From: Escherichia coli
Lineage (GTDB): Bacteria; Pseudomonadota; Gammaproteobacteria; Enterobacterales; Enterobacteriaceae
Length of the DNA: 64,000 bases
Assembly: GCF_024502345.1 (NCBI RefSeq)
Contig: NZ_JALDNN010000001.1
Strand: one strand, 5' to 3'
Made by a program: the position numbers and the translations under genes. A model generated the notes under the pieces. That model did not search any database. It was given only the letters and a program-made list of their open reading frames with translations, and had not been told where the DNA came from. Shown here piece after piece: positions 3,874 through 6,135 of the stretch (its first letter is position 1; each line of letters starts with the position of its first letter).

Positions 3874-6135
3874 ATGCGTAAATATCCTTTAAGTTTACTG
3901 AAGGATAAAAATATTGTGACTTTTTTTGATTTCTGGGGAAAAACCCGACGCGGCGAGAAAGACGGGGGCGACGACTATCACCTTCTTTGCTGGCATTCGC
4001 TGGATGTAGCCGCGATGGGCTATTTAATGGTTAAAAGAAATTGCTTCGGGCTGGCTGATTATTTTCGTCAATTAGGGATTTCTGACAAGGAACAGGCGGC
4101 TCAATTTTTCGCCTGGTTGCTGTGCTGGCACGATATTGGAAAATTTGCCCGCTCTTTTCAACAACTTTACCTGCCCCCTGAACTCAAGATTCAGGAAGGT
4201 GCCAGAAAAAATTACGAAAAAATCTCTCATTCAACGCTGGGTTACTGGCTGTGGAATTATTATTTAAGTGAATGTGAGGAGTTGCTTCCTTCATCTTCAC
4301 TCTCTTCTCGTAAACTTACACGTGTAATAGAGATGTGGATTTCCATAACTACCGGGCATCATGGTCGACCACCTGACCGTATTGATGAGCTGGATAATTT
4401 TCTGCCTGAAGACAAAGCTGCCGCGCGAGATTTTCTCCTTGAAATCAAGGCACTGTTTCCGCTCATAGAGATTCCCACATTCTGGGATGATGACGAGGGC
4501 GTTGAACTTTTAAAACAACTTTCCTGGTATATCTCTGCAACAGTCGTACTCGCAGACTGGACGGGTTCGTCAACGCGATTTTTTCCACGCGTCGCACAGA
4601 CAATGAATATTAAAGATTACTGGCAGAAAACTTTAGTTCAGGCTCAAAACGCCTTAACCGTCTTTCCTCCAAAAGCAGAAACCGCACCTTTCACCGGAAT
4701 TAATACGCTGTTTCCTTTTATTGAGAATCCGACACCGTTACAGCAAAAGGTGCTGGATCTGGATATCAGCCAGCAAGGACCGCAGTTATTTATTCTGGAA
4801 GATGTGACTGGCGCAGGTAAAACAGAAGCGGCGCTTATCCTGGCGCACAGGTTGATAGCTGCGGGGAAAGCTCAGGGGCTGTTTTTTGGTCTGCCAACAA
4901 TGGCAACGGCCAATGCCATGTACGATCGGCTGGTCAAAACCTGGCTTGCTTTCTATTCGCCAGAATCCCGCCCCAGCCTGGTGCTGGCACATAGTGCCCG
5001 CACATTAATGGACCGCTTTAATGAATCACTCTGGTCTGGTGATTTAGTCGGGTCAGAAGAACCGGATGAACAAACGTTCAGTCAGGGATGTGCGGCCTGG
5101 TTTGCCGACAGTAACAAGAAGGCGTTGCTGGCTGAAATTGGCGTCGGCACGCTGGATCAGGCGATGATGGCGGTGATGCCGTTCAAACATAATAATCTGC
5201 GGCTTCTGGGGCTGAGTAACAAAATCCTGCTGGCTGATGAGATCCACGCCTGTGACGCTTACATGTCGTGCATTCTTGAAGGGTTGATCGAGCGGCAGGC
5301 GCGTGGCGGAAACAGCGTTATTTTGCTTTCTGCCACGTTATCTCAACAGCAGCGCGACAAACTCGTCGCTGCCTTTGCGCGGGGTACAGAGGGCCAGCAA
5401 GAAGCTCCGTTCCTGGAAAAGGATGATTACCCCTGGCTGACGCATGTCACGAAATCCAATGTGAACTCACACCGGGTAGCGACGCGCAAAGACGTTGAGC
5501 GTAGCGTCAGCGTGGGTTGGCTTCATAGTGAACAAGAGTGTATTGCGCGTATCGAATCGGCGGTAAGTCAGGGGAAATGCATCGCCTGGATCCGGAATTC
5601 TGTCGATGACGCTATTAAGGTTCATCGTCAGCTGCTTGCCCGCGGCGTCATTCCTGCTTCCAGCCTTTCACTTTTTCATAGCCGCTTTGCTTTTAGCGAT
5701 CGCCAGCGAATTGAAACGGAGACACTGGCACGCTTTGGTAAAGAAGATAGCTCACAGCGTGCCGGAAAAGTCCTTATTTGTACTCAGGTATTAGAGCAGA
5801 GTGTCGATTGTGACCTGGACGAAATGATCTCCGACCTGGCCCCTGTTGATTTGCTGATTCAGCGAGCAGGACGATTACAGCGGCATATCCGCGATATTAA
5901 TGGTCAGTTACTGGAAGTGCGTGCCGGTGTGTATGTTGGTGATACATCAAAACGTATTCGGGAGATGATCTGGCAGCAAATTACCCAACTGGCTGGTTGC
6001 GGAAATGTGGTGATGGCCTGGGCGACCAATACCGAGTCGGGTTTTGAATTTCAGACCTGGGGAGAAAACAGACGTATTCCGGTGGATTTGGATGGGTTAC
6101 GTTTGGTTTCTTTTCTTCCTGTTGATAATCAATAA
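3874..6135 (+). pseudogene. cas3: In-frame fusion of type I-E Cas3 (HD nuclease plus SF2 helicase, C-terminal domain lost) to the last ~75 aa of Cas2; a deletion remnant of the cas operon
   Basis: The N-terminus has HD motifs (HSLDVA, WHDIGK, TGHHG). Helicase motifs are [12 protein letters not shown] and QRAGRLQRH. From about nt 5907-5913 the sequence becomes [17 protein letters not shown]...[37 protein letters not shown], which matches the remembered C-terminus of E. coli Cas2 (YgbF). No cse1/cse2/cas7/cas5/cas6e/cas1 genes lie between it and the array. Confidence 0.8.

Follow-up and report, generated by a model that had tools for sequence, protein, structure and literature searches.

How does an Escherichia coli chromosome come to hold, in a single open reading frame (ORF), most of Cas3 followed directly by most of Cas2, and is the encoded protein a new one or the debris of a lost operon? 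The question is posed by positions 3874 to 6135 of a 64,000-nucleotide stretch of E. coli DNA (assembly GCF_024502345.1, contig NZ_JALDNN010000001.1; the whole stretch is referred to below as the window), for which an original prediction, made from the letters of the DNA, had described an in-frame Cas3-Cas2 chimera in a CRISPR locus. Our analysis upholds the chimera itself: it is an ordinary deletion pseudogene in a dead type I-E locus, and it is already present in public genomes, where it is annotated as pseudogenes. The locus as a whole is very probably a degenerate representative of the E1 variant of type I-E, with the chimera a non-functional remnant, the by-product of an illegitimate deletion tied to a recurrent breakpoint in cas2.

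The chimeric frame and its junction

A single ORF beginning with ATG (3874-6135, + strand) encodes 753 residues, of which the first 679 are those of Cas3 and the rest, fused in frame, are residues 24-97 of Cas2, and the HD and helicase motifs that had been read in it were confirmed by the ORF listing, Pfam and tblastn. The N-terminal HD nuclease domain is present (Cas3_HD, PF18019, residues 21-237, profile positions 1-207 of 207, E = 6.5e-34), a DEAD match at residues 287-355 marks the start of the helicase domain, and Cas3-like_C_2 covers residues 566-672 (profile positions 1-105 of 106, E = 1.2e-33); taken together, Pfam and structure alignment place the whole superfamily 2 (SF2) helicase core (RecA1 and RecA2, motifs I-VI) in the chimera. 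The profile of the I-E Cas2 family (Cas_Cas2CT1978, PF09707) follows at residues 677-744, matched over positions 19-86 of 86 only (E = 1.9e-24). Among structural counterparts, residues 19-671 align to residues 19-693 of the 944 of T. fusca Cas3 (4QQW/6C66), and residues 678-751 to residues 22-95 of E. coli K-12 Cas2 (4P6I).

As intact references for the same I-E1 variant we used the loci of strains MFDS1006657 (L003) and A31 (L004), in which the order is hok-cas3-casA-casB-cas7-cas5-cas6e-cas1-cas2-array-iap. With the A31 proteins as tblastn queries, Cas3 residues 1-679 of 899 match window positions 3874-5910 at 96.5% and Cas2 residues 23-97 of 97 match 5908-6132 at 100%. In nucleotides (nt), window 3600-5910 runs alongside cas3 without a break as far as nt 2037, at 97.4% identity, and the window from 5909 onward is colinear with cas2 from nt 68 at 99.4-100% identity; both flanks thus follow the intact loci with one clean gap between them, the two alignments overlapping by the dinucleotide TA. 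At the joint the left partner reads ...GGTCAGTTA|AAGCG, the right partner ...TCTGGCTA|CTGGAAG and the window ...GGTCAGTTACTGGAAG. The alignment with same-variant loci that the original prediction had proposed therefore defines both end points and their TA microhomology, and it corrects two details: the joint lies where it had been placed (5909-5910, within about 5907-5913), but the Leu-Leu codons thought to be shared by the partners are not, only TA being common to both; and the tail does derive from Cas2, but with 74 of 97 residues it amounts to about three quarters of that protein and not two-thirds. The principal elements of the locus are these:

3874-5910, + strand: 5' portion of cas3, codons 1-679 of 899, encoding the HD nuclease, RecA1 and RecA2 as far as motif VI (QRAGRLQRH) (Pfam, tblastn)
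5909-5910, + strand: deletion junction, the TA common to cas3 nt 2036-2037 and cas2 nt 68-69 (three-way alignment with the L003 and L004 flanks)
5911-6135, + strand: 3' portion of cas2, codons 24-97 and the stop codon (6133-6135) (100% identity to L004 Cas2 residues 24-97)
6136-6231, + strand: CRISPR2.1 leader of L1 type, 96 nt long (bounded by the cas2 stop and the first repeat; aligns colinearly to intact-locus leaders)
6232-6443, + strand: shrunken CRISPR array (repeat and spacer listing)

Relative to L003 and L004, 6,297 bp are missing. This is 3 x 2,099, and because the gap is a multiple of three, Cas3 codon 679 runs in frame into Cas2 codon 24. Lost are the 3' end of cas3, the genes cse1, cse2, cas7, cas5, cas6e and cas1, and the first 69 nt (23 codons) of cas2, as the original prediction had supposed. 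The five genes of the effector module (cse1, cse2, cas7, cas5 and cas6e), which in a complete locus stand beside cas3, fall in the gap, and what is present of the adaptation module (cas1 and full-length cas2) is Cas2 residues 24-97; the A31 proteins Cse1, Cse2, Cas7, Cas5, Cas6e and Cas1 gave no tblastn match at E <= 1e-3 anywhere in the 64-kb window. Since the window holds no Cascade or cas1 gene, the locus can neither interfere nor adapt, which bears out the incapacity that had been predicted for it.

Neither half of the chimera is complete. The Cas3 linker and accessory C-terminal domain (residues 680-899, 220 residues) are gone, as seen both in tblastn and in structure alignments that end at residue 693 of 944; in T. 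fusca structures the C-terminal domain of Cas3 caps or closes the channel for single-stranded DNA, contacts Cascade and helps docking onto Cse1. The Cas2 part is without its N-terminus, MSMVVVVTENVPPRLRGRLAIWL, and so has neither strand beta-1, which bears the N-terminal acidic residue, nor the opening half of helix alpha-1. Beta-1 belongs to the core of the Cas2 fold, and a piece that lacks it would not be expected to adopt that fold. The cas3 part departs from A31 Cas3 at 24 residues, 23 of them between positions 129 and 274. The corresponding DNA (segment 4290-4700) is about 14% different from L003 and L004, which are otherwise the closest alleles, and is 99% identical to an O157:H7-type allele found in 302 genomes, indicating that the cas3 remnant is a recombinational mosaic and not decayed sequence.

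Leader and array follow directly upon the cas2-derived stop, as predicted. The array is of the I-E kind, with 29-nt repeats and 32-nt spacers, and consists of three perfect repeats (starting at 6232, 6293 and 6354) and two spacers; after these come a terminal spacer (6383-6414), conserved in every CRISPR2.1 array of E. coli that we examined, and a last, degenerate repeat (6415-6443). Loci L007 and L008 carry the identical chimera and the same two leader-proximal spacers together with eight further internal spacers (L007 2660-3300), giving 11 repeats as compared with three in the window. The window array, having the same leader end as this longer one, is therefore a deletion derivative with no new acquisitions.

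The surroundings are those of the E. coli chromosome (cysJIH, hok, cas3..., iap, cysDNC), and the window flanks are 99.0% identical to complete E. coli genomes. Three neighbouring features complete the layout:

3529-3681, + strand: hok/gef-family toxin gene, the conserved left neighbour of cas3 in I-E1 loci
3682-3873, + strand: hok terminator hairpin GCGGGGGTAAAACCCCGC (about 3688-3705), then an AT-rich region upstream of cas3, colinear with intact loci
6464-7501, - strand: iap, 345 residues, the conserved right neighbour, annotated iap in all homologous loci

A homologous coding sequence, annotated as 'Hok/Gef family protein', stands 194 nt upstream of cas3 in L003, L004 and strain 23CRST035 (L001), and the hok homologue of L006 matches PF01848. 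An AT-rich promoter region upstream of the chimera had been described as retained. The region is indeed there and colinear with intact loci; a consensus scan found no + strand sigma-70 match in 3730-3873, which counts as evidence neither way. In related loci the hok terminator hairpin upstream of cas3 is interrupted by an insertion sequence (IS) of the IS4 family, IS421, with the target duplication GGGGTAAAACCC. It occurs there in several lineages and in both orientations (positions 630-700 and 1950-2010 of strain 1303, L002, and the starts of L005, L007, L008, L014, L015 and L017), and contigs with the identical chimera are among those that have it; the hairpin looks like an insertion hotspot for this element; IS421 is not present in the hairpin of the window (3688-3705). 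In strain CP53 (L016), IS5 abuts a remnant of an IS421 end.

Occurrence and origin of the junction

The identical 753-residue protein is encoded on 16 independent contigs, which come from draft genomes at NCBI, metagenomes of the human gut and Logan assemblies, and L006 matches the window at 100% identity over 2.9 kb. Of 5,426 complete E. coli genomes, 19 have sequence that runs across the junction: two (23CRST035 and NCTC 13148, the latter L017) have exactly the junction of the window, which we call type A, and 17 have a type B. In both type A genomes PGAP annotates two pseudogenes, 'cas3 ... missing C-terminus' and 'cas2e ... missing N-terminus'. Type B (the mastitis strain 1303 and 16 others, mainly pig and cattle isolates) has the same cas3 end and 8 more nt of cas2, so that it is out of frame and stops at residue 700. 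A type C, from AR_0069 (outside the 19), has the same cas2 end, lacks a further 481 nt of cas3 and stops at residue 537.

The survey that had been suggested in order to distinguish a clonal from a recurrent origin gave a more complicated picture than either, in which the right end is a recurrent breakpoint. On both sides of the window junction the flanks match the intact alleles of L003 and L004; those of 23CRST035, NCTC 13148 and strain 1303 agree with intact CP53. NCTC 13148 has six additional single nucleotide polymorphisms (SNPs) at a distance of 39-66 nt, the closest SNP on the right that tells the alleles apart stands 27 nt from the joint, and in the iap-cysD core genes the window lineage is about 1.5% different from the other group. 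The array of 23CRST035 (type A) is a subset, in spacers, of the array of strain 1303 (type B), and the in-frame form there is therefore most simply type B minus 8 bases between two TA dinucleotides; to judge from these sequences, the in-frame form of the 1303-like lineage probably arose from an out-of-frame type B precursor by loss of 8 more bases. For the in-frame junction in general two readings remain, namely more than one independent origin, or one origin followed by homologous recombination with intact alleles. The mosaic cas3 indicates that allele exchange is common at this locus; conversion tracts would be expected to extend to the homology boundary at the joint. That a deletion of several kilobases removed the middle of the operon is borne out by the colinear alignment. 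That it was a single event, as originally proposed, is not proven: type B shares the left end, so the in-frame form may be the product of two steps.

Loci with an intact look can also be broken. PGAP reports an internal stop in cas7 of MFDS1006657 (L003 15080-16135) and another in cas3 of CP53 (L016 1177-3876), and decay of the operon by other routes appears common.

A shared end point in cas2

We collected chimeras by a protein search with the C-terminal 121 residues of the 753-residue ORF and mapped the contigs that encode them against L004. At least nine distinct junction types emerged, with left ends in cas3, cse1, cse2 or cas7 and all right ends within cas2 nt 61-70; only one chimera among the matches had another Cas2 start. 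The shared right-end site occupies window positions 5903-5917 (cas2 nt 61-76) and reads ATCTGGCTA|CTGGAAG, and every type but B joins at or immediately beside TA|CTGGAAG (cas2 nt 69|70). Loci that share the right end are L001, L002, L005, L017-L022 and L025-L029. By left end, the types are:

Type A: cas3:2037, TA microhomology; the junction of the window
Type B: cas3:2037, with the right end 8 nt further upstream (cas2:61|62)
Type C: cas3:1557, TAC
Type D: cse1:167, 7-8 nt of microhomology
Type E: cse1:420, TA
Type F: cas3:2453, 8 nt of microhomology, IS1 nearby
Type G: cse2:106, on 14 contigs
Type H: cas7:730, no microhomology, on 16 contigs
Type I: cse1:891, TA

The deletions are one-sided and 2.7-6.8 kb long, and all of them remove cas1, cas6e, cas5 and at least part of cas7. 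One more protein, P0016, has a 12-nt in-frame deletion that ends at the same cas2 point. The complete genomes serve as an independent check: the 321 nt that adjoin the site on its right occur in 2,732 of 5,426 (with at least 80% coverage in 2,727) and the 321 nt to the left in 2,700 (at least 80% coverage in 2,694), and 27 genomes keep the right segment without any left segment; partial matches, which are candidates for breaks elsewhere in the 642 nt, occur in only five genomes (right) and six (left). Such genome counts are inflated by clonal relatedness, which does not affect the number of distinct junction types. Two further protein searches reached beyond these chimeras: full-length K-12 Cas2, a query chosen for the K-12-type (E2) variant, brought up Cas2 proteins of full length only, and the C-terminal 46 residues of Cas2 returned only short fragments. 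A Salmonella Cas2 of 121 residues with an internal tandem duplication of about 24 residues (P0002) was also seen among the protein matches.

The left ends have a feature of their own, in that the deleted DNA begins A-N-G at all low-homology left ends (TTA|AAG, GTA|ACG, TTA|ATG, GTG|ACG and TTA|ACG). In L004 coordinates the first deleted base is 12213 for type A (AAG), 13393 for E (ACG), 14638 for G (ATG), 15810 for H (ACG) and 13864 for I (ACG). A-N-G follows a retained TA in four of the five low-microhomology junctions (four of four TA junctions), a context found at only 36 of the 332 TA sites of the operon (11%). This is reminiscent of the AWG motif that the variant uses, although ACG is a non-canonical form.

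It is conceivable, though we think it rather unlikely, that cas2 nt 61-70 of the I-E1 operon form a site-specific fragile point at which repeated one-sided deletions start, and that the chimera is one product of an undescribed, mechanistically specific route of CRISPR-Cas inactivation. The mechanism may be Cascade/Cas3 autoimmunity at an AAG-flanked protospacer, or recurrent nicking or fork collapse followed by RecBCD resection and end joining. The cas2 gene has an AAG at nt 74-76 and an inverted repeat (CGGCTCGCA/TGCGTGCCG). Three local explanations were considered and set aside. The IS5 terminal repeat, GGAAGGTGCG, has a look-alike, GGAAGTGCG, on the right side of the breakpoint, and three left ends lie in TTAA, an IS5-type target; an IS5 pseudo-end was rejected, because the supposed end falls short of the junction by 2 nt or more and can be matched only with a gap. 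Chi-limited protection of the right end from RecBCD was rejected for want of a Chi site in the required orientation; three + strand Chi sites could account for the absence of left ends in cas5-cas1, with weak statistics (p about 0.15). A hairpin with an imperfect 9-bp stem places the junction in its loop, and at a z-score of -1.9 it is too weak to convince.

Remnant or protein, and the relation to known systems

In the reading that we favor, an illegitimate deletion would have brought cas3 nt 2037 up against cas2 nt 70, hardly any homology being shared by the two ends, and the remnant would read as one 753-residue ORF because the 6,297-bp loss happens to be a multiple of three, making the frame a breakpoint by-product and not a selected design. 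Without Cascade there would be no processing of CRISPR RNA and no target finding; without Cas1 and an intact Cas2 there would be no spacer acquisition, and the array could only decay. The origin of the chimera would be tied to the recurrent breakpoint at cas2 nt 61-70, common to many independent operon deletions. A Cas3 without 220 residues, a Cas2 without beta-1 and the existence of out-of-frame sister alleles together point to a decaying remnant and not to a new protein, and the chimera is most likely silent or unstable and would have no CRISPR function. Some observations pull the other way. The alleles of the window, 23CRST035 and NCTC 13148 are 4-5% apart in nucleotides and all keep the full 753-residue frame, which could hint at purifying selection; and Cascade-independent activities have been reported for E. 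coli Cas3 (R-loop and ColE1 replication effects), so that some residual HD or helicase activity could persist in the chimera. The allele differences form blocks that match circulating intact alleles, so recombination explains them.

A rival reading takes the chimera to be an expressed and functional, Cascade-independent HD nuclease/SF2 helicase with a Cas2-derived tail, kept for some benefit such as R-loop or plasmid-copy control or DNA repair. We consider this very improbable. In its favor, neither the HD motifs nor helicase motifs I-VI are damaged, the ORF still has its native upstream region, and the allele is found in many samples as well as in frame in the three diverged forms; but the frame is intact by construction, and the related frameshifted junctions B and C persist in 17 and 1 complete genomes, respectively, which argues against selection for the reading frame. 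The missing Cas3 linker and C-terminal domain and the missing first beta-strand of Cas2 count against function as well, the promoter scan being neutral, and cas3 of E. coli is normally silenced by H-NS (literature summarized in PMC10910852). Still less credence, indeed next to none, can be given to the idea of a misassembled fusion, or of a Cas3 variant that normally ends in this way. The 16 independent contigs and two complete genomes share the junction, and no displaced Cascade genes lie nearby in the 64-kb window; the tail is identical to Cas2 residues 24-97, and every intact Cas3 of the variant continues instead into a different 220 residues.

CRISPR autoimmunity, as a cause of the deletion, seems to us improbable, if less so than a functional protein. 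Here Cascade would have bound a protospacer at 5918-5949, next to an AAG protospacer adjacent motif (PAM) at 5915-5917, and Cas3, travelling 3' to 5' on the + strand, would have degraded the DNA leftwards through cas1 toward cas3 until survivors rejoined the ends; the expected outcome is a fixed right end some bases upstream of the PAM, variable left ends and products that are all dead for interference. The right ends of the nine junction types do lie 4-12 nt upstream of an AAG PAM that is oriented for leftward Cas3 travel, and the one-sided losses, with cas7 at least partly hit and cas5, cas6e and cas1 always lost, fit as well; moreover, the E1 variant uses AWG/CWT motifs, and Cas1-Cas2 prefer spacers from DNA near their own genes (PMC3737337). 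The spacers themselves speak against it. When 129 distinct spacers (CRISPR2.1 of all loci analyzed and CRISPR2.3 of two carrier genomes) were set against intact cas operons, with BLAST and with an exhaustive ungapped comparison, none matched above chance, the best at 22 of 32 positions, and the terminal spacer agrees with the junction-adjacent protospacer at 15-16 of 32 positions, which is not significant given 14-15 for unrelated spacers. The cas2 protospacer occurs in no array of the 5,426 genomes (searched with a synthetic repeat-spacer-repeat query from one cas2 allele), and no phage or plasmid mini-array with it was found, only genuine cas2 genes being matched. The same protospacer would, in addition, have to have been acquired independently many times, and nucleotide-precise right ends are, to our knowledge, not seen in published Cas3 deletion spectra.

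As a decaying remnant, the chimera matters chiefly for how such loci are scored. The cas2 primer used for CRISPR1 typing (PMC10910852), AGACGTATTCCGGTGGATTTGGATGG, is kept at window positions 6070-6095, so that typing by polymerase chain reaction (PCR) treats the dead locus like an intact one. Surveys that score strains as cas-positive by cas3/cas2 PCR or by gene matches would misclassify the carriers, and gene callers will report a 753-residue 'Cas3' that is not Cas3. The chimera is of modest interest, as a marker of a dead CRISPR-Cas locus; the recurrent cas2 breakpoint is the more interesting part, and, should it be a true mutational hotspot, it gives a concrete, testable way into the question of how I-E immunity is lost from E. 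coli lineages, and why.

Among described systems, the nearest are the 'minor arrangement' CRISPR-I loci described from E. coli and Shigella, which are partly deleted, carry truncated cas-E1 genes and are discussed mostly as IS-driven (Almendros et al. 2014, PMC3903273), and the incomplete I-E operons of clinical isolates that keep cas1, cas2 and cas3 (PMC12736100). The window agrees with these in its slot (cysH-hok ... iap), E1 variant, upstream hok and L1 leader, and in the loss of internal cas genes that leaves cas3 and cas2 fragments, an array and non-functional immunity. It differs in that IS-mediated deletions are stressed there, whereas its own junction is free of IS elements and has 2 nt of microhomology; in a limited full-text literature search we found no description of an in-frame Cas3-Cas2 ORF or of a shared cas2 breakpoint. 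The resemblance to type I-F Cas2/3 is confined to the presence of Cas2-like and Cas3 (HD and SF2 helicase) sequence in one polypeptide. The type I-F protein begins with a complete Cas2, continues with a complete Cas3, acts together with Cas1 and the Csy complex, and is encoded next to cas1 and csy genes; in the window the order is Cas3 then Cas2, both are truncated (by 220 and 23 residues), no cas1 or csy gene is present, and the halves are near-identical to what intact I-E loci encode as separate genes. The chimera thus falls outside the I-F Cas2/3 family.

Orphan CRISPR arrays are known from strains that have lost their cas genes, among them E. coli BL21 and strains of phylogroup B2 (summarized in PMC3903273). 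The window shares with them an array and leader that persist without a working cas operon and whose spacers are only lost, and departs from them in keeping three quarters of cas3 and of cas2. Finally, microhomology-mediated, RecA-independent illegitimate deletions, produced in E. coli by alternative end joining or replication slippage, resemble the nine junction types in their 0-8 nt of microhomology, kilobase-scale loss and independence of any IS element. In such deletions one end point is not expected to recur to the nucleotide with many partners, whereas the end point in cas2 is reused.

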